64,000 bases of DNA from NCBI GenBank assembly GCA_041674805.1, contig JBAYVA010000002.1, positions 83,234 to 147,233 of the forward strand, in the 5' to 3' direction. The position numbers and the translations under genes were made by a program. The notes under the pieces are model-generated. The model ran no database searches, had not been told where the DNA came from, and was given only the letters and a program-made list of their open reading frames with translations. Shown piece after piece: positions 3,954 to 57,431 of this stretch (the first letter of the stretch is position 1; each line of letters starts with the position of its first letter). Origin of the DNA: Candidatus Magasanikiibacteriota bacterium. GTDB taxonomy: Bacteria > Patescibacteriota > Patescibacteriia > Magasanikbacterales > UBA922.

Positions 3954-6900
3954 TTATTTAGAAATAAATTTTTTAATCAATTTTTTTATTTTTGAAAAAA
4001 TATTTTCTCCATTACTTTTCAAAAAAAGTCCAAACAAAATAGCAGTAAAACCACCAGCTGTAGCTGTTAAATATTTTTCAACAATATCCGCGTTGTCTTG
4101 CTCTTTGGCTTTTTCTTTTTTTGTTACCAAATCTTCACTAACACCTGTTTTAATAATATCATTTTGATCACGTGGCAACAATTGATATTCTGTTTTTGTT
4201 TGATGAAGTAGTCCAGTAATACTTACTAAATTACCTTCTTCAAATATATCTTTTTTTATACCAGCTCCTCTCTTAAAATATACTTTTATTTCCTCAGTTC
4301 CATCGTCTACATACATATAAGAACTTTTTATTTCTGTAATTTCACCACTTACCAAAATAAGACTACCTTCATATTGTTCCCCCACATCTTCTAATTCCAA
4401 GACTCTACCAATTGGTAATTCACTATGTCCCAATTTTTTTATATCATTTTTTTCTTTTAATTTTATTCTAGTTTCACCAGAAGTTTCTGTAATTTCTCCC
4501 ATAACTTCTATTTTGTCTCCCCTTTTTAAATCTGGAAAATCTTTACTAAACATATAAATTTGTACACCAGCATTTTCAGAAACTATATAAAAAATTTGTG
4601 TACCCATTATACCTGGTTCTACTGCTACTGTACCTGTCACACTAATCATATCACCCAAATCTTCATCACGTATTTTTTCTAAACTAGTGTTTATAACTGC
4701 TTTCACTGAATTACTCTTACTTTTTACTATTTTAACGGATTTTACTTCTGTTATTTCTTCTACAAAATTTACCTCACCAGGGCTAATAATTTTATTCCAA
4801 ATCCAGTTACCTTCACTATTACGAACATAAGAGGCTCCTTCTATTACATCATCAAATCTTACTTCCATTATAATAGTTCCATCAGGATACAAAAGACGCA
4901 CAGAATCACTAGTGTTATTCAAAGCCAACTTTGTATCTTGGCGACCAAAGACTTTATATTCTTTAGCTTTTATCAAAGTATTAGCTCCTACAGTATAAGC
5001 TTTTGATCCACCTTCTTCATCATCAATTTTTAAACCCGAAATATCAACATCTTCTTCTGTAGGATTGTGAATTTCAATAAATTCAGTAGTATCTGAACCT
5101 ACTGGATTTGGCAAAATCTCTGAAATGTACAAAACAGATATATCACTTGTTCCAGCATAACCACCCACAAAATCTTGAGACAATTTTACACTTAAAACAA
5201 CATCCTTTTTACTTTCATTACTACCATCACTTACTGTCAAAGATACAGTATAAACTCCTTGTTGCAAAAATTTATGTTCTACACTCGCGCCATCTTCATC
5301 AGTCCCATCAGCAAAATCCCAATGAAATTTTAAATCTTTTCCTTCTGGACTAACAGTATCAGAAGCATCAAATTTCACCCATTCATTTACAGCTACTTCG
5401 GTATCTACATCAAGTGCAATAATTGGTGCTGCACTTTTACCTTCTACTATGTTTTTGCTTCCAGCAGTAATTTTACTACTCCATACCCAAGTAGCATCAT
5501 CTTGCCTCACATAACTAAAAGAATCACTAGCACTACCAGGATAACTTACACTATTTACGATTGCCCCATTTGGAGAAAATAATTTTACTTCATCTCCTCC
5601 TGTATTATTTAGAGCTATTTGTGTCATAGTTCTTTTGAAAACAATGAATTCATTTGCTTTCAATACACCTTGTTTTATTGTATATTTTTTCTTACTAGAA
5701 TCAGATAATTGCCAATCTTTCAAATCAATAGTTTCTGTACCTTTATTCCAAATTTCAATAAACTCATCATCACTATCACTACCTGGAGGATTTGGATAAA
5801 TTTCATTCAAAACTATGTTTGTTTGCAAAGAAAAAATTTCTTGTTTTTCCAAATCTTCAGCTTTTAAAGATAAAACATTTTTTTGTCCCCTAGTAATAGT
5901 ATCTGTAATTATAAAATCATAATAATCATTATCAGCATCTTGTCCATCTGTTTTTCTTATCAACGAATATGGATCACTTGCCACAGCAGCATTATCATAA
6001 GTATTACCATCATCCCAATTGCCATAAGTAACTTTATCTATTTCTTTTTTACTAGGATCTAATAATAACAAAATATCACCAGCATTATTGAGACTTCCTT
6101 TTGGTTCCTCAATTACAAAAAAACCTTTAGGCAAAATAGTCCCTGTCAAAATCGTAATTGTTTCACTACCATCTTCCAAAGACCAATCATTTAAATCAAT
6201 AATTTCTGAAGTGTTGTTATATATTTCTACGAATTCTTTTTCTCCATCACTAGGATCAGAAACCAACTCGTTTATGACCAAATCTCGTGCATTATAATTT
6301 TTTGTTGTTACTTCAGAACTAGAAGACGAACCTCCACCAGAACTAGAAACTGGAATATTTTTAATAATATTGACTTCACCTGGCGTTGGTTCTGTGGTAA
6401 TAGAAAAATCATTTTTATTATTTCCCGTGTTTTGACCATCCACGATTCTCGCCACAGAATAAGGATCACTGTGTGCAGGAGCGTTGTCTGAAATATCTTC
6501 ATCAAAAAAATCTATCCAATCACCAAAACGCACTGTGTCTATCAAATTACCAGAATTATCATACAAAAAAATACCATCACCATCATTGTTCAATTTACTA
6601 GACAAAATATTTACTCGCAAAAAACTTTTTGTTTCCAAAATATTATCCAAAACCAAAATTTTTTTTGTGCTACTACTACTTTTGTCACCTTCGTGCACTT
6701 CCCAATCTTTCAAATCAATAGTAGAGGTAGAATTATTATATATTTCTACCCATTCATTTTCACCAGCCACAGGATCACTTACAAATTCATTAATAACTAT
6801 TTCATAATTAGGAATAGTATTTGTCGTGGTAGTAGTACTTTCAAAATTTTCTACTATACTAAAGTTAAAAATGTCACTTGCAAAATCATTTTTATCATCT

Positions 6901-19915: not shown

Positions 19916-21283
19916 TTAATGATTATGACCTGTATGATCTTCGTGATCTTCTTCTGCCATGGCATGTCCGTGAGAATGTTCTTCATGCTTATGTCTTTCA
20001 CCTTCTACTAATTTATCTGCCAAAAAGTTTACAACTTTTTTATTTAATAGCATGTTGTGAATAGAATCAAGTACTTCTGGTTTTTTCAAATTTTCTAGAT
20101 ACTCAGCAGTTTCTTTGTAGTATTCACGTAGATTTTTTACTTCAGCATCTAATTCATCTTTGGAAATAGTTAGACTGTGTGCTAGAGCTACTTCACGAGA
20201 AAGCAATGAAGCTTTGGCTCTATCAGTTGCTTTGTTTCTAAAATCTTCTTGTAATTCTTTTTCATTTTTTTTGATGTCTTGTAAATATTGTTCAATTGTT
20301 ACACCATGTTTTTCTAAATCATGTTGTAATTCATAAAACATTTTTTTGAGTTCAGCTTCTACTAACACTTCTGGAATTTCTTCAAATTTAGTTTCTTTGA
20401 TCAATGTTTCAAACATTTCTATTTCAGCTATTTCATCAGCTTTGTGTTCAGCTTCGTGAGTCAAATTTTCTTTGATTAGGTCTTTTAATTTGTCTAAACT
20501 TTCTTGTCCTAATACTTTGGCAAAAGCATCGTCTGCTTTTGGTATTTCTCTACCAAAAACTTCTTTTACTTTTACTTTGAATTTGCCAGTTTTACCAGCT
20601 AATTGTGCACTATAATAATTTTTTGGAAAAGGTAAATCAAATTCTTTTTCATCACCTTTTTCTAAACCAATCAAAGCATCATTGAAACCAGGGATATGTT
20701 GATGATCTTCTGATAAATAAACATTGTAATCAATAGCCTGTCCACCTTCTACTGGTACTCCATCCAAAAACAAATTCATATCTATAACGATCTTGTCTTC
20801 TTTTGTTGCTTTGCCTTTTTTGATTACTTCTTTTGCTTGCATTTTTAATAAATTATCAATAGTTTCATTTACTGATTGATCATTTACTTCTTTGACTGTT
20901 CTTTTTATTTTGATTGATTCTAATTTTGGTAATTCAACTTTTGGTAACAAAGCTACTTTGGCAGAATAAACTAAATCATTAGCAGGTGCCATTTTTTGAA
21001 TATTGATATCTGGCATGCCAATAGTATTTAATTTTTCAGCTGTTACAGTTTGATAAAAACTGTCTTGGATAATATCTTCCAAAGCTTCTTGCAAAAGTTT
21101 CATTTCACCTACTTCTTGTTTGACCATTTCAAAAGGAGCTTTGCCTTTGCGGAAACCTCTAATAGCTACACGATTTGAAATAGTAGTAGCTGCTTTTTCT
21201 AAATGTTTTTGATAATCTTTTGGACTAACTGTAATAGTAAGTTCAATTTGTGATTTTTCTAATTTTTCTATTTTGTGTTCCAT
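19916..21283 (-). CDS. tig: Trigger factor (ribosome-associated chaperone/PPIase) with His-rich C-terminal tail
   Basis: N-terminal ribosome-binding signature GFRKGKAP, a central FKBP-like domain, and a C-terminal tail ERHKHEEHSHGHAMAEEDHEDHTGHNH. Confidence 0.9.
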   Translation of the reverse strand: MEHKIEKLEKSQIELTITVSPKDYQKHLEKAATTISNRVAIRGFRKGKAPFEMVKQEVGEMKLLQEALEDIIQDSFYQTVTAEKLNTIGMPDINIQKMAPANDLVYSAKVALLPKVELPKLESIKIKRTVKEVNDQSVNETIDNLLKMQAKEVIKKGKATKEDKIVIDMNLFLDGVPVEGGQAIDYNVYLSEDHQHIPGFNDALIGLEKGDEKEFDLPFPKNYYSAQLAGKTGKFKVKVKEVFGREIPKADDAFAKVLGQESLDKLKDLIKENLTHEAEHKADEIAEIEMFETLIKETKFEEIPEVLVEAELKKMFYELQHDLEKHGVTIEQYLQDIKKNEKELQEDFRNKATDRAKASLLSREVALAHSLTISKDELDAEVKNLREYYKETAEYLENLKKPEVLDSIHNMLLNKKVVNFLADKLVEGERHKHEEHSHGHAMAEEDHEDHTGHNH

Positions 21284-21300
21284 ACTTTATTTTTTAAAAC

Positions 21301-21345
21301 GCGGAATTACGCGGACTTTTACGCGGATAGACGCGGAAAGTGACC
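21301..21345. repeat. Four phased direct repeats of the GC-rich heptamer ACGCGGA in the tig leader
   Basis: ACGCGGAatt ACGCGGActttt ACGCGGAtag ACGCGGAaag, with spacing 10/12/10 bp. The 20-mer TTACGCGGATAGACGCGGAA recurs exactly at 43445-43464. Confidence 0.8.
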
Positions 21346-21381
21346 AAAATAATGCGTTTATTTTTGATTAAAAAGTGGCTA

Positions 21382-21410
21382 TAATATAGCTTGTTTTGCT
21401 TGAAATGTCA
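21382..21410 (-). promoter_or_regulatory. Sigma70-type promoter for tig
   Basis: On the minus strand: TTGACA (21410-21405), 17-bp spacer, TATATT (21387-21382). Confidence 0.6.
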
Positions 21411-21416
21411 ACTGTT

Positions 21417-21459
21417 GGCAAGCAGAGTAAGCAAAGTAAGCAGAATAGGCATAATAAGT
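21417..21459. repeat. 43-bp promoter-proximal element with 9-bp-phased TAAGCA units (copy 1)
   Basis: GCAAGCAGAGTAAGCAAAGTAAGCAGAATAGGCATAATAAGT. A near-identical inverted copy (38/43) lies at 24971-25013. Confidence 0.8.
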
Positions 21460-21508
21460 TTTTGACGAGGATATTTTTTGGTGTTATTGTTTGTTGCGGA
21501 GGTGAGAA

Positions 21509-21646
21509 ATGAAAGAATTTCTTGAGACCCTCATCGGCATTCTCGCTTCCCTTTTTTGGGGAGCGGTGTTCGCCGTTTTCCTCTTTGATGAGGAAGCGGC
21601 GGCGACCTTCCTGCGAGGGGAGGTCAAATATGTCACGGGGGTTTGA
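21509..21646 (+). CDS. Small hydrophobic peptide (45 aa) inside the GC-rich island; SD-led
   Basis: GGAGGTGAgaaATG. Translation MKEFLETLIGILASLFWGAVFAVFLFDEEAAATFLRGEVKYVTGV has one TM helix plus a charged tail. Not in the ORF table because it is under 60 aa. Local GC is about 55%, versus about 30% for the genome. Confidence 0.4.
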   Translation: MKEFLETLIGILASLFWGAVFAVFLFDEEAAATFLRGEVKYVTGV

Positions 21647-21727
21647 AAAGGAGGGCGGTCCGGGCGTACGTGCGCGGACCAAACTCATAAATTAAGACCG
21701 TTTTTCTTTATTGAAAGACGGTTTTTT

Positions 21728-21976
21728 TTGACAGTTCATTTTTTTGTAGTAGTTTTTAAATATCTTCCACGGAAGGAGGTGGTTGTGGGTGGTGAGAGCC
21801 CCTTTCATACGCTGATCCAGTGTCCAAACTGTAGGCGTTATACGGACTCAAGAGAGTTCGAAACGCTGACAAAAGATGGGGGAGAGTACAAAAAGTGCCC
21901 ATATTGTGGGTGGTCACATCTTGTGTCTATGCCCTCGGCGTACTTTAAGTATAGGAGGGACGATGGAATTAATTAG
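21728..21976 (+). CDS. Small CxxC...CxxC zinc-ribbon protein inside the GC-rich island (likely true start GTG at 21782, 64 aa)
   Basis: GGAAGGAGGTggttGTG. ...SPFHTLIQCPNCRRYTDSREFETLTKDGGEYKKCPYCGWSHLV. The two Cys pairs form a zinc ribbon. Confidence 0.45.
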   Translation: MTVHFFVVVFKYLPRKEVVVGGESPFHTLIQCPNCRRYTDSREFETLTKDGGEYKKCPYCGWSHLVSMPSAYFKYRRDDGIN

Positions 21977-22063
21977 GTAAGGGGTGGGGAAGGTGGATGC
22001 GCGCGACTTCTACGAAAGTGGTTGTCGTGCGCGTTCGTTCAAATAAAAAATAAAATTTTAAAA

Positions 22064-24970: not shown

Positions 24971-25013
24971 ACTTATTCTGCCTATTTTGCTTACTTTGCT
25001 TATTTTGCTTGCT
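24971..25013. repeat. 43-bp promoter-proximal element (copy 2, inverted relative to copy 1)
   Basis: Reverse complement is GCAAGCAAAATAAGCAAAGTAAGCAAAATAGGCAGAATAAGT. It overlaps the polA -35. Confidence 0.8.
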
Positions 25014-27766: not shown

Positions 27767-27861
27767 GCACCTAATCACTTTATCACTTAAATACTTTTTT
27801 ATTTTTAAAATAACCAACCTACGGTCACATCCGGAACATCCGGATTATCTGTATATCAGGA

Positions 27862-36041: not shown

Positions 36042-36062
36042 TTTCATGTTTCACATGAAACT
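36042..36062. terminator. Hairpin GTTTCATGT-TTC-ACATGAAAC at the 3' end of the recombinase gene
   Basis: Perfect 9-bp stem overlapping the stop codon. A CACGTG palindrome sits nearby. Confidence 0.45.
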
Positions 36063-36889
36063 TGATCCAAATGGCTGAAAATATTGAGTGTTTGTACAGG
36101 CTTACTTGTTTTGTATTTTTTGGTAGTACGAATATTTTTATGGCCAAGTATTTTTTGAAGTTGTTTTTCATCGATTCCCCTTTCAAGCATTTCTTTACTA
36201 AAGCTGTGTCGTAAAGATTGAAAAGTTATTTTTTTAGTTATTTTGGCACGTTTTAGGGCTTCTGTGAAAGCTTTTTCAACAGATCTGATACTTAGTTGTT
36301 TATTTTGTGGGTTTATAAAAACAAAATCATTCATTTTTTTGAAAGCGACAAATCTTTTCAATTCATTTTTTATTGTCTGAGGTAATATAGTTTCTCTATT
36401 TTCTTTAGTTGATTTGTTGTTTAGGGTAATAATGTTGTTTTCAAATTGTAAATTTTTGACTTTTATATCTATAATCTCACTTATTTTTAATCCTGAACCA
36501 TAAGATAATAAAAAAATGAGACAATGTTTTTGATTTTTGGTATTTTCTATTATTTTCTCAAATTGTTTTTTGTTCAAAGTATTTATCTTGTTTGTATTTG
36601 TTTTAAAAAAAATTATAGACACTGTTTGTTTTTTGAAATTTTTGTAATAAAATGACAAAATGTTTAAAATTAAATTTTTTGTTTGATTTGATTTTTTTTG
36701 TTGAGTTTTCAAAAATAGTTTTATTGATGTATTTTCGTCAGATATTTTTTTTTTATTTAAAAAAAATAAATATTTTTCTAAATAAAAAAGGTAGGATTTA
36801 ATAGTTGTTGGCTTATAGTTTTTTTGTAGTAAATCAGTTTTTATTTTTGATAAAATATTTTTTTCTGAAATTTTTTTTTGTTTTTTCAT
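36044..36889 (-). CDS. Tyrosine recombinase/integrase (XerC/D-like, phage integrase family), possibly degenerate
   Basis: The C-terminus has box II LRHSFSKEML and LGHKNIRTTKKYKTS with the catalytic Tyr. The box I position reads GLKISE (Lys where Arg is expected). The N-terminus is a SAM-like core-binding domain. Confidence 0.7.
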   Translation of the reverse strand: MKKQKKISEKNILSKIKTDLLQKNYKPTTIKSYLFYLEKYLFFLNKKKISDENTSIKLFLKTQQKKSNQTKNLILNILSFYYKNFKKQTVSIIFFKTNTNKINTLNKKQFEKIIENTKNQKHCLIFLLSYGSGLKISEIIDIKVKNLQFENNIITLNNKSTKENRETILPQTIKNELKRFVAFKKMNDFVFINPQNKQLSIRSVEKAFTEALKRAKITKKITFQSLRHSFSKEMLERGIDEKQLQKILGHKNIRTTKKYKTSKPVQTLNIFSHLDQVSCET

Positions 36890-42443: not shown

Positions 42444-43007
42444 ATGTCAAATAAAATAATTTTAGGTTTTGTTGGTGATTTGGCTTCTGGTAAGGGAACC
42501 TTGGCTAAATATTTACAAGAAAAGTATAATTGTAATACTTACAGATTTTCTAATATGCTTCGTGATGTTTTAGATAGAATCTATGTAGAAAAAAATCGTG
42601 AAAATATGCAACTCGTTTCAAAAGTATTGCGCGAAAATTTTGGGCAAGATGTGATGAGCAATGTCATTGCCAAAGATGTGGTTGGTGACAAAAATGAACT
42701 TGTTGTGGTAGATGGTATTAGACGTCCAACTGACATCACTTATTTACAAAATTTAGAAGGTTTTCATCTAATATATATTACAGCTGACGTCAAAACTCGT
42801 TGGCAAAGAATGGTGAATCGTCAAGAAAATCCTGATGAAAAAGACAAAACGTTTGAACAATTTTTACTTGATGAACAAGCAGAAGCAGATATGCTGATAA
42901 AAGAGCTTGGTAGTAAAGCTGAAAAAACAATAAATAATGATGGTACAATCGAAGAACTTTATAACAAAATAGAAAATATTTTAGAAAGTTATGGACATAA
43001 AAATTAA
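42444..43007 (+). CDS. P-loop nucleoside/nucleotide kinase-family protein
   Basis: Walker A GDLASGKGT, 187 aa, NMP-kinase-like size. Embedded in the dTTP-synthesis cluster, so a dNMP kinase role is inferred. Confidence 0.5.
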   Translation: MSNKIILGFVGDLASGKGTLAKYLQEKYNCNTYRFSNMLRDVLDRIYVEKNRENMQLVSKVLRENFGQDVMSNVIAKDVVGDKNELVVVDGIRRPTDITYLQNLEGFHLIYITADVKTRWQRMVNRQENPDEKDKTFEQFLLDEQAEADMLIKELGSKAEKTINNDGTIEELYNKIENILESYGHKN

Positions 43008-43425
43008 ACGCATAGACAAAAGTTTACCTTTACCAGAATACAAAACACAAGGCTCTATTGCTTTTGATATGTATTCTCGCGAAGAAATGAAAATTGCGCC
43101 AAAATCTTTGGCACTTTTACCAAGTAATTTCATTATCAAAACTCCAGAAAGTCACGGACTTATTTTGTCAGCTAGATCTAGTCTTGCTAAGAAAAAAGGT
43201 TTGATGCTCGCCAATGGTGTTGGTACAATTGATAGGGATTATTGTGGTGAAAATGATGAAATATTATTGTCAGTTTATAATTTTACAGATGCAGAAGTAA
43301 TTGTAGAAAAAGGTGAGCGTATCGCCCAAGGTATGTTTATGCGTATTGATAGTGGTAATTTTGTAGAAGTAGAAAAAATGGAAGAAAATGATAGGGGGGG
43401 GTTTGGGAGTACAGGTTCGTTTTAA
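42991..43425 (+). CDS. dut: dUTP diphosphatase
   Basis: Trimeric dUTPase motifs AFDMYS, ANGVGTIDRDYCGE and the C-terminal GGFGSTG. Confidence 0.85.
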   Translation: MDIKIKRIDKSLPLPEYKTQGSIAFDMYSREEMKIAPKSLALLPSNFIIKTPESHGLILSARSSLAKKKGLMLANGVGTIDRDYCGENDEILLSVYNFTDAEVIVEKGERIAQGMFMRIDSGNFVEVEKMEENDRGGFGSTGSF

Positions 43426-43444
43426 TGCAGATTAGTATTGATAT

Positions 43445-43464
43445 TTACGCGGATAGACGCGGAA
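43445..43464. repeat. TTACGCGGATAGACGCGGAA (two ACGCGGA units) 16 bp upstream of the thyA start
   Basis: Exact copy of the 20-mer in the tig leader (21321-21340). Confidence 0.8.
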
Positions 43465-43479
43465 TTAATTTTATAAAAT

Positions 43480-44352
43480 ATGAAAGCATACTTGGATATT
43501 GTTAAAAAAATATTAGATAGTGGAATAGAAAAAACAGATAGAACAGGTACTGGTACTATTTCTATACCTGGCATCATGTTTGAACATGAAATGAGCAAAG
43601 GTTTTCCATTACTTACCACAAAAAAAATGCCTTTCAAAATTTTGGCTGTGGAGTTGGAATTTTTTATCAAAGGTCTTACTGACAAACAATGGTTGATTGA
43701 TAGAAACTGTCATATTTGGGATGAATGGGCAAATCCTGAAAAAGCTCCTTATGGACATGACGAAGCTAGCAAAAAAAGAATGGCAGAAGAAAGAGATTTG
43801 GGGCCAGTTTATGGTTTCCAATGGCGTCATTTTGGTGCACCTTATTATAATTATGATAGTGATTATACAGAACAAGGTTTTGATCAGCTGAAATATGTAG
43901 TTGATAATTTGAAAAATAAACCAGACGATAGAAGAATGGTTGTAAGCGCCTGGAATCCTGCAATGGCTTCTAAAATGGCTCTCCCTCCATGTCACTATGC
44001 TTTTCAAGTTACGGTTACTGATGGTAAATTAAATCTTATGTGGAACCAAAGATCTGTGGACACTATGCTAGGGCTTCCTTTTAATATCGCTAGTTATGCT
44101 TTGTTATTACATCTTTTGGCAAAAGAATCCAATTTGGGTGAGGGTAAGCTCGTTGGTTTCCTTGGTGACACTCATATTTACAAAAATCATATAGAAGGTG
44201 CAGAAGAACAACTTAGTCGTGATTCAAATAAATATCAATTACCAAAATTGGAAACAGAAAATTTCACTTCTATTTTTGACTGGAAAGCTGAAGATACCAA
44301 AGTCGTTGGTTACGAAAGTTTTGATAGAATAAAATTTGATATTGCTGTTTAA
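43480..44352 (+). CDS. thyA: Thymidylate synthase
   Basis: Catalytic-Cys context LPPCHYAFQ, folate-binding region, 290 aa. Confidence 0.9.
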   Translation: MKAYLDIVKKILDSGIEKTDRTGTGTISIPGIMFEHEMSKGFPLLTTKKMPFKILAVELEFFIKGLTDKQWLIDRNCHIWDEWANPEKAPYGHDEASKKRMAEERDLGPVYGFQWRHFGAPYYNYDSDYTEQGFDQLKYVVDNLKNKPDDRRMVVSAWNPAMASKMALPPCHYAFQVTVTDGKLNLMWNQRSVDTMLGLPFNIASYALLLHLLAKESNLGEGKLVGFLGDTHIYKNHIEGAEEQLSRDSNKYQLPKLETENFTSIFDWKAEDTKVVGYESFDRIKFDIAV

Positions 44353-50729: not shown

Positions 50730-50866
50730 ACTCCGTTTATTACACATATATAAAAAGGCTTTATTTAGCCGATTAATTCATAATTTACAAATGGTTGTGA
50801 TTTCCATAAACCATTATAATGTGTAGTCATTTTAATTTATACATATTAAGTCTAATATATTCGTCT

Positions 50867-53788
50867 ATGAAAAAGAACTTTTTCGCTAAACTAGGCCATT
50901 TTTTCCTGGTTTCAGCTGTTTTATTCAATGGTTTTGGTGTAGCCTTTGTGAAGGCTGATGTTGTAGAAGTTTTGGGTATGTCTCCAAATACAGCAACTTT
51001 GTCTGAGGGTGACATTAACCCTATTTCTTTAGTAACAATTTCTAATTCATCTACTAGTACTATAAATCTAACATTTACTATGTCAGGTGAAGCTGTTAGA
51101 AGTATAGATGGTAGTGGTGATTATGAATTGTTTGTTGGGGAAGGTTCTCCATTTGTAGTTGTTGATACAAACTTAATAAGTGTGCCTGCAAATGATTCTG
51201 TCATCTTTCCTATAAATATTATAAATGACACAGTATCAGAAAATGCAGAATCTTTTGGTTTGACATTTGAAACAGCTAGTTATGATGATGAAAATAGAAC
51301 ACCTGTAGAAGGTTTTAGTTCTCGTGGTGCTATAAATTTTACTATCAATGATAATGATATTACACCTCCTACTTTTGATACTATTGTCCCTAGTCCATTT
51401 TCAAGAAATGAAAGTGATAATTTTGGTGGTATTGCTACTTTTATAAATAATGCTAGTACAACTTTAGATTTTCATTTTGAAATTAGTGGAACAGCTTCTA
51501 CATCTGATTATATAATTGAAACAACTAGTCGTAGTATAAATGAAAATGGAGATGTTATGGCGGTGCCTAATAGTGTGGATTTAGAAAATGGTATAATTAG
51601 TGGGGTTACAGGAAATGAAAAAAGAAGATTTAATTTTAAACCAGTAGAGGACACAGAAGTAGAAATTGATGAAACAGTTATTATTACATTGAAATATGCT
51701 ACTGATATTGAACAAAGAGTTTATGATTTTGCAGATATTTCTTACACTACTATTATTAAAGATAATGATACTGCATCCACTACTACCACAGCTAACGTCA
51801 CATTTTCTTTTTCAACTTCTACTATTAATGAAAATTCTGGTAATGTAAATGTTGCTAATGTTATTAATAATGAAAATCAAGATGTATCTGTGAAATTTAC
51901 ATTTTCTGGCACAGCAGTATATGGCACAGACTATACTTTGAGATCAGGAACTGGTACTTCTATTTTTGGTAATGGTACAGAAGCAGTACTTTTGATAGGT
52001 ATTAATAGTAGTAGTAGTTTTCCTTTGACTCTGAATACAGTTGATAGTGATAAAACTGTTGAAATTACTCTTACACAAGTAAATTTTGCGGATAATTCAA
52101 CAACAACATCTTTCACTGCAGGAAATGTTACAACACATACACTTACTATCAAAAATGTTCCTACATCAGGTGAAAATAATATTCCAACAATAAAAACACC
52201 GATAGCCACACAATATATAGATCTTTATGTTACTTCTACATTAACTATTAATAATGAAATATTAAAGAATTTATTTTTTGATTTAGATACTAATGATAGA
52301 GTTGGTATTAGTTTGACTAATAATACAGATGCTACTGTTGTAACAACAACATCAGACATAGAATTTTCTAGTTTAGTATTAACAGGTTTAAAAGTTGGAA
52401 CAAGTACTATTGAACTTACTGGTGATGATCATCGTGGTGGTATTGTTACCTCAACTTTCGATGTAATCGTTACTGATTCTACTCCTGTTGAGGGAAATAA
52501 TGCTCCAACATCAACTGTAATAGATGATAAAACATTGGAGGTTGGTCAGACTTTTGATATTATTCCTAGTGTTATTTTTGAAGATGTAGAAGATAGTGAT
52601 GATAAGTTAACTTATGGTGTAGAAATTAGTGCTGGTTCTGTTGTTTCTGTAACAACAACAAATTTTACAAATTCTTGGGCATATACTTTTACTGCTGAAA
52701 GTGTAGGTACTTCTACAATTACTCTTAGTGCAACTGATTTGGGTGGTCTTAGTACAAGTACATCATTTAAGGTAACTGTCACAGAAGATGTAACACCTAT
52801 ATTAATAAAAGAAATAGTTAATCAAACTTTAAAAGTAGGTGAAAGTGTAGTTTTGAACTTAAATGATTATTTTTCAGATCCAAACGAAGATGTCTTGTCT
52901 TTTTTAACAAGTATTAACGTTCCAAATTTAATTACTACAACACTTAATACTGAAACAAATAAATTAACAATTACTGGTGTAGCTATAGGTACAACTCTTA
53001 TGAGTGTTACTGCCTCTGATAGTCAACATAGTGTTTATGATATATTTAATGTCACAGTAAAAGAAAATAATGAAGGTAATACTGATAACAATACCGGTTC
53101 AAGTAACGGCGGTGGTAGTTTATTACCAAACACAGCTCCTCAAGCTTCTATGGTTGTTGGTCAAGAAGTAACTATCGAAGTAAACAAAGAAATTACTTTT
53201 GATGCTAGTAGTAGTGTAGATAAAGAAGGAAACATTAGATTTTATTTCTGGAACTTTGGTGACGGAAGTGATGAAGTATATTACACTGTCCCAACAGTCA
53301 AATATACTTATACTAAAATAGGTAATTACACTTTGAATATCAAAGTAAAAGATGCTTACGGTGCTGAGAGTAGTGCGCAAGTAAAGGTAAAAGTTGTAGC
53401 TGGCAAAGCTTCTACAAATACGGGAACTCCAAATACTAATACTGAAAGTGGAACTAAAACTGAAACTGAAACTACAACTTCTACTTCAACAACTGATACC
53501 CCAACTCCTGTAGAAGAAACTGGAAGTACTGGTAGTACAAATAATAATACTAACAATAACACTTCTGCTAATAATACTGAAGAAGAAGCAATAACAACTG
53601 AGGAAGAAAATACTTCTATAGAAGAAGAGACTACTTCTGAAAATACTGAAGAAGAAATTACTGAAGAAGTACCTGCTGAAACAACAGAAGAATTACCAAC
53701 TTGGATCAAGATCATCTTTGGCAGTGGTGCTCTAGCTGCTATTGCTGGCGCTGGACTTGCTATCAATAGAGTGAGAAAAAATGTGTAA
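50867..53788 (+). CDS. Giant cell-surface protein A (signal peptide, Ig/cadherin-like repeats, PKD domain, Thr/Glu-rich stalk, C-terminal TM anchor)
   Basis: The likely true start is MKKNFFAKLGHFFLVSAVLFNGFGV, which matches the paralog start. The ORF-table start at 50819 adds 16 non-conserved residues. PKD: FYFWNFGDGSDEVYYTVPTVKYTYTKIGNYTLNIKVKDAYG. C-terminal EELPTWIKIIFGSGALAAIAGAGLAINRVRKNV. Confidence 0.8.
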   Translation: MKKNFFAKLGHFFLVSAVLFNGFGVAFVKADVVEVLGMSPNTATLSEGDINPISLVTISNSSTSTINLTFTMSGEAVRSIDGSGDYELFVGEGSPFVVVDTNLISVPANDSVIFPINIINDTVSENAESFGLTFETASYDDENRTPVEGFSSRGAINFTINDNDITPPTFDTIVPSPFSRNESDNFGGIATFINNASTTLDFHFEISGTASTSDYIIETTSRSINENGDVMAVPNSVDLENGIISGVTGNEKRRFNFKPVEDTEVEIDETVIITLKYATDIEQRVYDFADISYTTIIKDNDTASTTTTANVTFSFSTSTINENSGNVNVANVINNENQDVSVKFTFSGTAVYGTDYTLRSGTGTSIFGNGTEAVLLIGINSSSSFPLTLNTVDSDKTVEITLTQVNFADNSTTTSFTAGNVTTHTLTIKNVPTSGENNIPTIKTPIATQYIDLYVTSTLTINNEILKNLFFDLDTNDRVGISLTNNTDATVVTTTSDIEFSSLVLTGLKVGTSTIELTGDDHRGGIVTSTFDVIVTDSTPVEGNNAPTSTVIDDKTLEVGQTFDIIPSVIFEDVEDSDDKLTYGVEISAGSVVSVTTTNFTNSWAYTFTAESVGTSTITLSATDLGGLSTSTSFKVTVTEDVTPILIKEIVNQTLKVGESVVLNLNDYFSDPNEDVLSFLTSINVPNLITTTLNTETNKLTITGVAIGTTLMSVTASDSQHSVYDIFNVTVKENNEGNTDNNTGSSNGGGSLLPNTAPQASMVVGQEVTIEVNKEITFDASSSVDKEGNIRFYFWNFGDGSDEVYYTVPTVKYTYTKIGNYTLNIKVKDAYGAESSAQVKVKVVAGKASTNTGTPNTNTESGTKTETETTTSTSTTDTPTPVEETGSTGSTNNNTNNNTSANNTEEEAITTEEENTSIEEETTSENTEEEITEEVPAETTEELPTWIKIIFGSGALAAIAGAGLAINRVRKNV

Positions 53789-54158: not shown

Positions 54159-57100
54159 ATGAAAAATAATTTTTTTGCTAAACTGGGAAACTTTTTTCTG
54201 GTTTCGGCTGTATTGTTCAATGGTTTTGGGGTAGGTTTGGTAAGTGCAGAATATGCAGAAGTTGTCTCTCCCACATTCTCTTTACTTGTTGATAATGTAA
54301 AAGAAGGAAATTTAGGAGAAACAACTACTTATAATGTTGGTGTAAAATATAATGGTCCAGTTTTGGTCTCTGATTATACTGTGGAAGTAATATTTTATAG
54401 TGTTTTAAATGATACTTTTGCTGAATATGGTGTTGATTATGAGGTACCTAATTCTGTGCCTAATTTGGAAGATTCTTCGTATTTTCTTACTTTTACGCCA
54501 GCAACACAAAATGATGAATTGTTTGTTCCTGTAACTGTTATGGGTAACGATACTATTAATAGTTTTAATGTTTTATTCAAATACATTATTTTTACTATAA
54601 AAGGTATTAATATCGACCAACCTGACCAGCTGTTTGGTTTGAGTATTGAAGATGATGATGTTCCTACTATTATTGAACCAATATTTACTCCCGCTACTTC
54701 TGTTGTCTATGAAGGTGTTGCTACAGGAGCTAATGTTACTAAGTTGGTAAACAATAATAATACTGATTTAATTTATACTATTGAACTTACTGGTGATGCT
54801 TTACTCGAACAAGAATTTGGATTGTCTGTTATTGATGAACAAAATATCTCTACACCAATCATGAGTAATTTTTTCAATCTTTCTGTACCAAGAAATTCTA
54901 GTTCTACTTTTTCTGTTCGTACAAATGGTATTTATGATAATTCGTCTTTTGATAATGTTGCAAAACAGACAATTTGGACTGTAACAAATGCGTTTGATGA
55001 GAGTATCTTTATTGATTATGATTTATCTTTAAGTAATATCAACTTTACTTTGGATATAAAAGATGAGGAAAATGATGTAGGTTTTATAAATCCAGCTTCA
55101 TCTGTTGCAGAAGGAATTTCATTGAATGACTCTAATTCATCACTTGTATACAACAATGGTACTGACAATGATGTGTCTTTGACATTTGAACTTTCGGGTA
55201 CGGCATCTTCTTTAACGGATTATACTGTAAGAACAAATGAATTGAGTTCAGGTTCTACTTGGGTAGTACCAAAAAATTCTATTAAATCTTTTCCTGTAGA
55301 TATCTTGAATGTAACTGGTGAAAAAAATTTAGTGTTTACAATTACAAAAATAGATTTATTAAATGACAATGGTACCATTAAAAATGGAAATATTACACCT
55401 ATTTTACCGAATGCACAGACACACACTTTGACAATTCTGGATAATGTTGTACCGCCTGTAAATCATGCACCTGTTGCAATTATGCAACCAATACTTTTGG
55501 GTAATGTTAATGTTGGTTCAAACTCAACCCCTGTTTCATTTTCAACCACTTTTTCAGATCCTGATTCAGATGTACTTACATATAGTGTAGAACTTTCAAA
55601 TCCTGTAATTGCAACATCTCAAATAACAGCAGGTGAGTTGGTACTTACAGGAACAAGTGTCGGTACAACAACAGTAACAATGATGGCTACAGATCCTGAT
55701 GGCTTGAGTGCTAGTACCACGTTTAGTTTGACTGTCGTAGAAAATAATAATGGTGGTGGAAATAATTCTCCAACAGTAAATATTCCAATAGCCACACAAT
55801 ATATTGATCTCTATACTACTTCCACATTAACTATTAATAATGCAATATTGCAGAATTTATTTTCTGATGCTGATGTTAATGACATAGTTGGTATTAGTTT
55901 GACTAATAATACAGATGCTACTGTTGTGACAACAACACCAGGCATAGAATTTTCTAGTTTAATGTTGACAGGTTTGAAAGTCGGTGCAAGTGTTATTGAA
56001 CTTACGGGAGATGATACACATGGTGGTATTGTTACCTCTACTTTTGCGGTAATCGTTAGTGACTCTACTCCTATAGAAGGAAATAATGCTCCTACATTAT
56101 CAACTACAACAGTATTTGTAGATAACGAAATTTCTTTGCAAGAAACATTTGGATCAAATCTTCATCTTTATTTCGAAGATGTTGATGCGGGTGATACATT
56201 AACTTTTTCAGCTACTACAACTGATGCTTCTATAGTGACAAGTGGAATTGACGCATTGGGTCAAATAACACTGACACCACATAATTATGGTACAGTTCAA
56301 GTAATTGTTACTGCCACAGATAATCAAGGTGCTAGTGTCTCTGATGCATTTTCTTTGAAAGTAAATACTCCACCAGAATTAACAGTAAATACTTTAGGAA
56401 ATAAACAAATTGATTTGAAAGTATCATCTAGTTTGTTAATAGATAGTAATACAATTCGTGGTGTTTTTACAGATAGAGATGGAGAAATACTTACTATTTC
56501 TGTAAGTGATAATAGTGATAATACTGTTGTAACAACTACTCTTGGAGAAGATGATTCTCTCACTTTACTTGGTTTAAAAGTGGGAACAAGTACGATTGAA
56601 ATCACTGCTGACGATGGTTATGAAATTACCTCTACTACATTTCTTGTTACGGTTGTAAATTCTACATCTGAAGAAACAGGGAATAATGGTGGCAACTCTG
56701 GCAGTTCAAGTGGATCTAGTGGCGGTGGTGGTTCTGCTCTTCTTTCTAATACAGCTCCTCAAGCTGCTATAACTAATGGTCAAGAAGTAACTGTGGAAGT
56801 AAACAAAGAAATTACTTTTGATGCTAGTCAAAGTACTGACAAAGAAAATAATATTAGATTTTACTTCTGGAACTTTGGTGATGATAGTGATGAAGTATAT
56901 TACACGGTACCAACAGTCAAACATACTTATACTAAAATAAGTAATTACACTTTGATAAGCAAAGTACGTGATGCTTACGGTGCTGAGAGTATTGCTGAAG
57001 TAAAAGTAAAAGTTGTAGCTGCTAAAGGTTCTACAAATACGGGAACTACAAATAATACTTCAAATACTAATACAGAAAGTGAAACTAAAAATGAAACTAC

Positions 57101-57431
57101 AATTCCAAAAACTGATACAACTACATCTGTAAAAGAAACTGGAAGTACTGGTACTACTACAAATACTAATAACAATAATTCTTCTAACAATACTGAAGAA
57201 GAAACAGTTATTGAAGAAGAAATTATAGAAGAAAGTACAATTGAGGAAGAAGATACTTCTTCTGAAGAAGAGTTTATTTTTGAAAATATCAAAGAAGAAA
57301 GTATTAAAGAAACACCAGTTGGAGAAGTAGAAGAACTACCAACTTGGATAAAAATCATCTTTGGTAGTGGTGCTTTAGCTGCTGTAGCTGGCGCTGGTCT
57401 TGCTATTAATAAAGTGAGAAAGAATATATAA
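54159..57431 (+). CDS. Giant cell-surface protein B (paralog of A)
   Basis: MKNNFFAKLGNFFLVSAVLFNGFGV signal peptide. PKD domain is about 85% identical to A. C-terminal EELPTWIKIIFGSGALAAVAGAGLAINKVRKNI. Confidence 0.8.
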   Translation: MKNNFFAKLGNFFLVSAVLFNGFGVGLVSAEYAEVVSPTFSLLVDNVKEGNLGETTTYNVGVKYNGPVLVSDYTVEVIFYSVLNDTFAEYGVDYEVPNSVPNLEDSSYFLTFTPATQNDELFVPVTVMGNDTINSFNVLFKYIIFTIKGINIDQPDQLFGLSIEDDDVPTIIEPIFTPATSVVYEGVATGANVTKLVNNNNTDLIYTIELTGDALLEQEFGLSVIDEQNISTPIMSNFFNLSVPRNSSSTFSVRTNGIYDNSSFDNVAKQTIWTVTNAFDESIFIDYDLSLSNINFTLDIKDEENDVGFINPASSVAEGISLNDSNSSLVYNNGTDNDVSLTFELSGTASSLTDYTVRTNELSSGSTWVVPKNSIKSFPVDILNVTGEKNLVFTITKIDLLNDNGTIKNGNITPILPNAQTHTLTILDNVVPPVNHAPVAIMQPILLGNVNVGSNSTPVSFSTTFSDPDSDVLTYSVELSNPVIATSQITAGELVLTGTSVGTTTVTMMATDPDGLSASTTFSLTVVENNNGGGNNSPTVNIPIATQYIDLYTTSTLTINNAILQNLFSDADVNDIVGISLTNNTDATVVTTTPGIEFSSLMLTGLKVGASVIELTGDDTHGGIVTSTFAVIVSDSTPIEGNNAPTLSTTTVFVDNEISLQETFGSNLHLYFEDVDAGDTLTFSATTTDASIVTSGIDALGQITLTPHNYGTVQVIVTATDNQGASVSDAFSLKVNTPPELTVNTLGNKQIDLKVSSSLLIDSNTIRGVFTDRDGEILTISVSDNSDNTVVTTTLGEDDSLTLLGLKVGTSTIEITADDGYEITSTTFLVTVVNSTSEETGNNGGNSGSSSGSSGGGGSALLSNTAPQAAITNGQEVTVEVNKEITFDASQSTDKENNIRFYFWNFGDDSDEVYYTVPTVKHTYTKISNYTLISKVRDAYGAESIAEVKVKVVAAKGSTNTGTTNNTSNTNTESETKNETTIPKTDTTTSVKETGSTGTTTNTNNNNSSNNTEEETVIEEEIIEESTIEEEDTSSEEEFIFENIKEESIKETPVGEVEELPTWIKIIFGSGALAAVAGAGLAINKVRKNI

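Follow-up and report, generated by a model that had tools for sequence, protein, structure and literature searches.

The window, the whole 64-kb stretch of DNA analyzed here, holds tig, the gene for trigger factor, on its minus strand and, on its plus strand, a same-strand cluster encoding dCMP deaminase, a kinase, Dut, ThyA, FolA, and Tmk in a gene order shared with relatives. A short array of direct heptamer repeats, which we call module A, lies in the tig leader, and a second copy lies in the spacer between dut and thyA. The features of the two loci are as follows, in order of position.

19916..21283, minus strand: tig (trigger factor), 455 aa; Pfam Trigger_N/FKBP_C/Trigger_C
21299..21337, plus strand: module A, tig copy, ACGCGGA att ACGCGGA ctttt ACGCGGA tag ACGCGGA
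21338..21361, minus strand: 24-nt leader segment directly 5' of the array, TAAACGCATTATTTTGGTCACTTT in tig sense
21383..21411, minus strand: tig promoter, TTGACA-17-TATATT, 11/12 consensus matches
42991..43425, plus strand: dut (dUTPase); Pfam dUTPase
43425..43463, plus strand: module A, thyA copy, ATGCAGA tta GTATTGA tattt ACGCGGA tag ACGCGGA
43480..44352, plus strand: thyA (thymidylate synthase); Pfam Thymidylat_synt

The tig and dut–thyA loci

The trigger factor protein is identical to a MAG protein that NCBI lists as "trigger factor [Candidatus Magasanikbacteria bacterium]," and its gene, as is the case for most genes of the window, lacks a Shine–Dalgarno sequence. Both promoter hexamers and the first 14 bases of the leader are invariant in five relatives. 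The predicted transcription start of tig is near 21376, which would give a leader of ~93 nt; from the position of the promoter, module A would occupy about +40 to +78 of this leader, and the heptamer nearest to the tig ATG is 15 nt away from it. A leader of ~93 nt is unusually long for the window. Nearly no window gene has a Shine–Dalgarno sequence when all ORF starts are checked, and at many of them a TATAAT-like hexamer stands 20–30 nt before the ATG, implying very short leaders. We considered that the tig leader might encode a leader peptide, as a TTG-started ORF of 17 codons spans the array in the window, and rejected this since the ORF is absent in relatives. Between the tig promoter and the H+-PPase gene lies an island of ~50% GC (21480–22040) in this 30% GC genome. 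The island contains a 45-aa hydrophobic ORF (21509–21646), which is kept in L142 and L143, and a zinc-ribbon ORF (21776–21976); both have a strong GGAGGTG-type Shine–Dalgarno sequence, nearly absent from other genes here, and are followed by terminator-like hairpins. The island has no Rfam match.

An earlier note on this DNA had reported four copies of ACGCGGA between the tig promoter and the start codon, and they are present on the plus strand at 21299–21305, 21309–21315, 21321–21327, and 21331–21337. The array therefore spans 21299–21337, slightly to the left of the 21301–21345 given in that note. The start-to-start spacing is 10/12/10, so that the heptamers form two pairs with 10 bp inside each pair and 22 bp from pair start to pair start; the resulting offsets of 0, 10, 22, and 32 bp place all four on one face of the helix, in agreement with the helical phasing proposed previously. 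The heptamer is also as non-random in this AT-rich DNA as had been claimed. Where 0.57 exact copies would be expected, the window contains 8, a number that was reached in 0 of 100 dinucleotide-preserving shuffles. Six of the eight belong to the two loci under study, and the remaining two, at 4087 (minus strand) and 32548 (plus strand), are single and lie inside ORFs.

At the second locus, the exact 20-mer TTACGCGGATAGACGCGGAA occurs at 21319–21338 and again at 43445–43464, where the earlier note had placed it just upstream of thyA. A second copy of the 20-mer in the window has an expectation of ~1e-8 (by arithmetic, with 35% per A or T and 15% per G or C). The copy at 43445–43464 comprises the last two units of the thyA array and their flanks and stops 15 nt before the thyA ATG (43480), within a dut–thyA spacer of 54 nt. 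Upstream of it are two degenerate units, ATGCAGA (43425–43431) and GTATTGA (43435–43441), and given that these keep the 10/12/10 spacing, the four-unit module is present at both loci. The thyA copy extends from the last base of the dut stop codon to 16 nt before the thyA ATG. The two copies are on opposite strands relative to their genes, as noted before: the tig mRNA sense reads TCCGCGT four times, whereas the sense strand at thyA reads ACGCGGA. A promoter scan of the plus strand within 43426–43479 yielded no convincing candidate, and thyA is thus probably co-transcribed with dut as part of the dCMP deaminase-kinase-dut-thyA-folA-tmk cluster.

Scoring of the window with a PWM combined with the four-unit 0/10/22/32 architecture gives 53 bits at tig and 36 bits at thyA, compared with shuffle maxima that average 7.9 and reach 20.6 at most; only these two loci rise above the shuffled controls. 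A scan that allows flexible spacing of 9–12 bp returns the same two loci and no others. The array is therefore real and non-random at both positions. The consensus unit of module A is RYGCNGA, in which G3, C4, G6, and A7 are the best-conserved positions.

Conservation and probable copying of module A

Relatives of tig were gathered by scanning metagenomes and GTDB with tig. The closest clade, with tig 77–80% identical, consists of L002–L007, L141–L144, and L481 (the last found with P0007), and the tig leaders of all of these contain an orthologous four-unit array. Representative arrays, in tig sense, are the following.

L142 and L143: TCTGCGT aaa TCTGCGT catta TCTGCAG taa TCCGCGT
L144: TCCGTAT gat TCTGCGT aatta TCCGCAC caa TCAGCGT
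L141: CCTACGT gaa TCTGCGC catta TCTGCAG taa TTCGCGT

The 10/12/10 layout of four units is held in at least five diverged tig leaders while the sequences of the units drift; in L481, an insertion of 43 nt separates units 1 and 2. Mean pairwise identity among the tig arrays is 0.76 in the heptamer columns and 0.52 in the spacer columns. Within the heptamers, in tig sense, positions 1, 2, 4, and 5 have identities of 0.8–0.9 and position 3 an identity of 0.4. The 24-nt segment directly 5' of the array is found only in the window and L481 and is missing from L141–L144 in the alignment. In tig relatives at or below 65% tig identity, the promoter is retained, the leaders are short, and the array is absent in all; scanning all 80 GTDB loci for the four-unit architecture bears out the absence of the array in distant tig relatives.

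For thyA, the informative relatives are L012–L019 (P0121-type), in which thyA is 90% identical and the following array stands directly after the dut stop codon (in L014, the first unit is GCGCGGA).

L012–L019: GCGCTGA ctt GCGCTGA ctttt ACGCGGA tag ACGCGGA

Between the window and L012, the 20-mer is identical at 20 of 20 positions; four-fold degenerate sites of thyA and dut are 0.59–0.64 identical, and the probability of such identity under neutrality is ~0.62^20 = 7e-5. The first two units and the flanks of the thyA copy have diverged between the same two genomes. Depending on the genome, the array precedes the thyA ATG by 16 to about 105 nt, owing to an inserted GC hairpin. L012 (2793–2929) and L014 (1929–1998), which have identical thyA genes, differ by an insertion of ~70 nt between the array and thyA that carries a GC-rich hairpin, CCTGCC taccgg... 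GGCAGG, and that looks like a small mobile or MITE-like insertion. The dut–thyA array is absent from L020 (thyA 88% identical), L233 (83%), L234 (85%), L231, and L230, and in L221–L225 it has decayed to GCATTGA gtt AAACAGA ttt AAACTGA tt ACACATA. The decayed thyA loci share samples with tig loci of the L143 type (L005/L223 and L479/L225).

In close relatives, then, both sites occupy orthologous positions with the orientation of each kept, which was the check that the earlier note had proposed for conservation. As judged from these alignments, purifying selection acts on the heptamer positions of both copies within a narrow clade. Module A is dispensable and narrow in distribution; it is a genuine cis element that is present in two copies, maintained by selection, and restricted to one clade.

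The exact sequence identity seen in the window probably has a different origin. The spacers ctttt and tag of the window tig copy are those of its own thyA copy and of the P0121-type thyA copies, whereas orthologous tig copies have taatg and ttt in their place; because the window tig spacers match thyA copies rather than orthologous tig copies, recent homogenization is indicated. The identity of units within the genome most plausibly results from recent gene conversion involving the pair of paralogous arrays, which are 22 kb apart in direct orientation. The fourfold perfect repeat and the exact 20-mer are accordingly best read as products of that presumed event and not as operator requirements. 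A shared operator would not predict the exact 20-mer to which the earlier note had drawn attention: the tig units of relatives are heterogeneous, and recent homogenization appears to fit instead. We also considered an element integrated between two direct copies, given a tyrosine recombinase gene at 36044..36889, and rejected it: polA, holA, rpsT, and tRNAs lie between the two copies, and relatives show synteny across this interval.

A second shared tandem repeat, module B, occurs at 21418–21458 (in minus-strand sense), just upstream of the tig −35 hexamer, and at 24972–25012 (plus strand), at or upstream of the polA −35 hexamer. Its unit is TTTGCTTAC with a period of 9 bp (CTTATTnTGCCTATTyTGCTTACTTTGCTTAyTyTGCTTGC); the two copies are identical at 37 of 41 positions and are oriented alike relative to tig and polA. 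Module B is present at both genes in L142 and at polA only in L144/L007. The tig control region thus shares one module with thyA and another with polA. A kinship of the module B units (AAGCAGA) with module A was rejected, as they score 12.5 bits, below shuffle maxima of 16.5 ± 3.7. The exact tandem ACATCCGGA ACATCCGGA at 27827–27844, ~20 nt upstream of the start of holA (DNA polymerase III delta), is a further promoter-region repeat that is short and rich in GC. Repetition is also seen in coding sequence: the adjacent large PKD-domain paralogues at 50819–53788 and 54159–57431 share blocks of 200–300 nt that are 80–86% identical, as well as low-complexity Thr/Asn/Glu-rich repeats.

Candidate functions of module A

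One reading of module A, which we consider unlikely but worth serious attention, is that it is the functionless relic of a minisatellite of ~10-bp period that was copied between two intergenic regions and is decaying, with occasional gene conversion. The small number of copies is in keeping with this, as no third array occurs in ~84 kb of the source contig (the window and 10 kb on each side, L226 and L228) or elsewhere in 1.37 Mb of related Magasanikbacteria DNA. So are the loss or decay of the thyA copy in close relatives, the insertion that interrupts the tig copy of L481, and the greater similarity of the window tig copy to the thyA copies of other genomes, a signature of conversion. The presence of module B upstream of both tig and polA shows that copying of short intergenic modules does take place in this genome, and in viral contigs arbitrarily chosen heptamers commonly form arrays of 10-bp period. 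A decaying repeat does not readily account for heptamer columns that are clearly more conserved than the spacers, a thyA 20-mer left intact despite saturated synonymous divergence, a spacing retained across diverged tig leaders, or the survival of GC-rich units under strong AT pressure in a genome of ~30% GC. The position of both copies on the chromosome invites another reading at the level of DNA, namely an anchor for a chromosome-organizing protein (centromere-like iterons) or a polar replication site near oriC. The dnaA and dnaN genes at 14.1–17.2 kb coincide with the lowest cumulative GC skew (a minimum near 14–16 kb), so that the window spans the replication origin. Both modules share one chromosomal strand and lie to one side of dnaA/dnaN, the sole heptamer left of the origin, at 4087, occupies the other strand, and the direct-repeat iteron layout resembles ParR/parC-type centromeres. 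We nevertheless regard a role of this kind as quite improbable: with four independent placements only, the strand pattern has a chance of ~1/8, the window contains no partition genes, and the sites lie precisely in a leader and an intercistronic spacer with conserved orientation relative to the genes. A link to oriC through DnaA boxes was rejected, as CGCGG is absent from the origin region at 14–18 kb.

Module A could instead act in RNA, as GC hairpins with palindromic cores that affect mRNA stability or processing, stabilizing the 5' end of the tig mRNA and serving as a 3' stabilizer of dut or a weak attenuator; we think this doubtful. The earlier note had held that the opposite strands of the two copies argue against an RNA element. 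The orientation itself is as described, yet the argument is weaker than claimed, because the palindromic cores CGCG, GCGC, and TGCA form small hairpins in either orientation, and hairpins function in either orientation. Both copies lie in transcribed regions near start codons, and the thyA copy begins at the dut stop codon. Predicted folds are somewhat stabler than those of shuffles (z of −2.2 to −4.3), RNAalifold of four tig leaders predicts nested R1:R4 and R2:R3 helices, the second of which is intact in all four with one compensatory pair (C-G vs U-A), and UUUU follows the R3:R4 hairpin in L012. Against this, RNAalifold gives a consensus energy of only −6.5 kcal/mol, of which the covariation term is −0.56, and the topology differs between adjacent pairs in the window and L012 and nested ones in L141, L142, and L144. 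The register of R1:R4 shifts among sequences, the thyA copies disrupt the nested helix, and the tig and thyA loci have no RNA fold in common. The most conserved positions, G6 and A7, are outside the stems, and position 5, which closes the stem, is the most variable. At the Rfam 15 gathering threshold, the whole window yields tRNAs only, and E-value mode around both array sites gives matches at chance level. A scan for terminators or extra promoters at both sites found none; no GC-rich stem of at least 5 bp with a T run occurs at 21290–21345 or 43425–43479, where the best local stems are 4 bp. The most improbable of the readings, to our minds, is pairing in trans between the tig leader and dut–thyA spacer RNAs, by which one mRNA would titrate or target the other. 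In the window, the tig leader segment 5'-UUCCGCGUCUAUCCGCGUAA is exactly complementary over 20 nt to the dut–thyA spacer RNA, both segments are probably transcribed, and the variable base shifts in parallel (CGGA/UCCG in the window type and CAGA/UCUG in the L143 type). This extended complementarity is confined to the present genome. In the L143 type (tig of L005/L479 and thyA of L223/L225), there are ~4–5 contiguous pairs per unit; in L481 and P0121, treated as one genome type by shared project name only, the spacers differ and single heptamers alone can pair. Moreover, parallel change is equally expected from one DNA motif read on two strands. We also tried CsrA-type GGA sites, which fit ACGCGGAUG in thyA sense, and rejected them, as the tig mRNA has the complement and relatives have AGA/TGA.

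We tentatively favor, with a probability of about 0.45, the reading of module A as an operator array at which a putative DNA-binding protein would act as a roadblock, both in the tig leader and at dut–thyA. The opposite orientation of the array relative to tig and thyA, each conserved, suits a ligand that recognizes duplex DNA. The conserved G3, C4, G6, and A7 differ from the palindromic core, and position 5, needed for self-pairing of CGCG, is the most variable; together with the opposite gene orientations, the placement of G6 and A7 outside the stems and the variability of position 5 favor recognition of duplex DNA. A heptamer followed by 3 nt and repeated 2–4 times is how the proven CtsR and MraZ operators are laid out. 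We posit that module A may be bound by a sequence-specific protein, either in the form of two dimers arranged head to tail or as a larger oligomer. At tig, this protein would occupy DNA ~40–78 bp downstream of the transcription start and would repress by roadblock, possibly also hindering access of the 30S subunit; at dut–thyA, its position within the operon would let it limit read-through into thyA-folA-tmk. We infer that the ligand would be a protein on duplex DNA, that its effect would be repression, and that tig and thyA would respond together.

The DNA-level operator of the earlier note is therefore sustained in that the array is non-random, conserved, and kept in orientation, with no shared RNA fold; the search for a cognate regulator gene did not find one. 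Among the window ORFs scanned against Pfam, we recognize no DNA-binding regulator other than the tyrosine recombinase, and neither the 64-kb window nor the adjoining 20 kb contains a regulator gene that could be tied to the array. At L226:18338–20519, ~8–10 kb beyond window position 1, there is a gene for a TrmB-family regulator, beside which are two small genes (191 and 204 aa) whose sole Pfam match is the RNA polymerase alpha C-terminal domain; we see no link between the array and either the TrmB-family or the alpha-CTD-only genes. The same note had joined tig and thyA in a regulon. This goes further than our results, given that the window contains no regulator, ~84 kb of the source contig and 1.37 Mb of related DNA contain no third site, and the thyA copy is lost or decayed in relatives. 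A regulatory link of protein folding to thymidylate synthesis is plausible. The fuller version, a circuit of the clade's own in which a putative oligomeric protein on RYGCNGA arrays couples trigger factor to dTMP and DNA-precursor synthesis through thyA-folA-tmk, and in which module B may tie in polA, is speculative and probably incorrect in this complete form.

To our knowledge, next to nothing has been learned about how CPR/Patescibacteria regulate their genes. These bacteria are not culturable alone and encode very few recognizable regulators. The array offers a short, delimited, and constrained bait with which a CPR regulator might be found, and it shows sites arising, being homogenized between loci, and decaying within a genus-level clade. 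If the circuit exists, module A would be among the first cis-regulatory elements defined in CPR bacteria and an example of an operator spread between promoters by gene conversion. If module A is merely a decaying repeat, it still documents the copying of a ~40-bp intergenic module between promoters in a reduced genome.

Resemblance to known operators and to phage arrays

Module A resembles the sites of CtsR, MraZ, and PhoB in layout only. The CtsR operator, RGTCAAA-NAN-RGTCAAA, consists of tandem direct heptamers with a 3-nt gap that are bound by a dimeric repressor; CtsR operators can stand in rows, and they control protein-quality-control genes (PMC12634643). Likewise, ACGCGGA-att-ACGCGGA and ACGCGGA-tag-ACGCGGA are each two heptamers 3 nt apart, and tig is a chaperone gene. 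The units differ, however (RYGCNGA vs (A/G)GTCAAA), and CtsR boxes overlap the −35/−10 hexamers or the transcription start of clp-type genes, whereas module A would be at +40 to +78 of tig or inside an operon. In addition, thyA is not a CtsR-type target, and the lineage is CPR and not Firmicutes. The window ORFs scanned against Pfam include no ctsR gene. The MraZ boxes of Mollicutes, (AAAGTGK-N3)x3, are direct repeats with a 10-bp period that are bound by an oligomeric ring (PMC5282649). Module A has in common with these boxes, and with HsdC repeats, a heptamer with a 3-nt spacer in 3–4 direct repeats (four units in module A), and the genomes in both cases are reduced and have few regulators. 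It lacks the GTG(G/K) core, and its neighbors are tig and dut/thyA rather than mraZ and the dcw cluster. A tblastn search with E. coli and B. subtilis MraZ queries gave no match in the window and ~1.4 Mb of Magasanikbacteria sequence centered on tig/thyA and not on dcw. We do not assign module A to CtsR or MraZ because its unit sequence, position, and neighbors do not fit.

Regulators of the OmpR/PhoB family bind repeats of 6–7 bp with a period of 10–11 bp as head-to-tail dimers, with two dimers per four repeats; pho boxes are direct repeats of 7 bp with a 4-bp spacer, and often two boxes, that is, four repeats, are present. The offsets of 0, 10, 22, and 32 in module A fit the 10–11 bp periodicity. 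In contrast to module A, which lies downstream of the predicted start, sites of this family are usually at or upstream of the −35 hexamer and activating, and we find no response-regulator domain among the window ORFs scanned against Pfam. The iteron and centromere arrays to which ribbon-helix-helix proteins bind (ParR/parC, omega heptads) likewise consist of short repeats in direct orientation along one face of the helix, as do the stoperators of mycobacteriophages, which lie in short intergenic spaces within transcription units and block elongation. These iterons and stoperators belong to plasmids and phages and have many copies, whereas module A has two chromosomal copies beside housekeeping genes. 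Finally, REP/BIME sequences are similar in being GC-rich extragenic elements of ~40 bp that occur within transcription units in either orientation; they differ in being imperfect palindromes with tens to hundreds of copies, module A being a direct repeat with two copies and weak self-pairing.

Six phage contigs, L079 (IMGVR_UViG_3300031999_000479), L053, L022, L054, L058, and L081, contain 3–4 tandem ACGCRGA-N3 units directly upstream of the Shine–Dalgarno sequence and start codon of many structural genes. In L079, seven such arrays occur within 11.6 kb, between genes for major head, adaptor, and neck proteins, and the first unit of the phage arrays is often CCGCNGA. The phage arrays have no Rfam match, none was found in annotated phages, and a literature search did not return the sequence. 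When viral contigs were examined with ACGCGGA-N3-ACGCGGA and, as controls, with two heptamers of equal composition, arrays of 10-bp spacing occurred in 11 of 120 loci for the former and in 8 of 120 and 4 of 120 for the controls. Given that control heptamers also yield such arrays, the phage arrays are no evidence of relatedness, and we rejected a kinship with module A. Arrays of heptamers with a 10-bp period are a common design.
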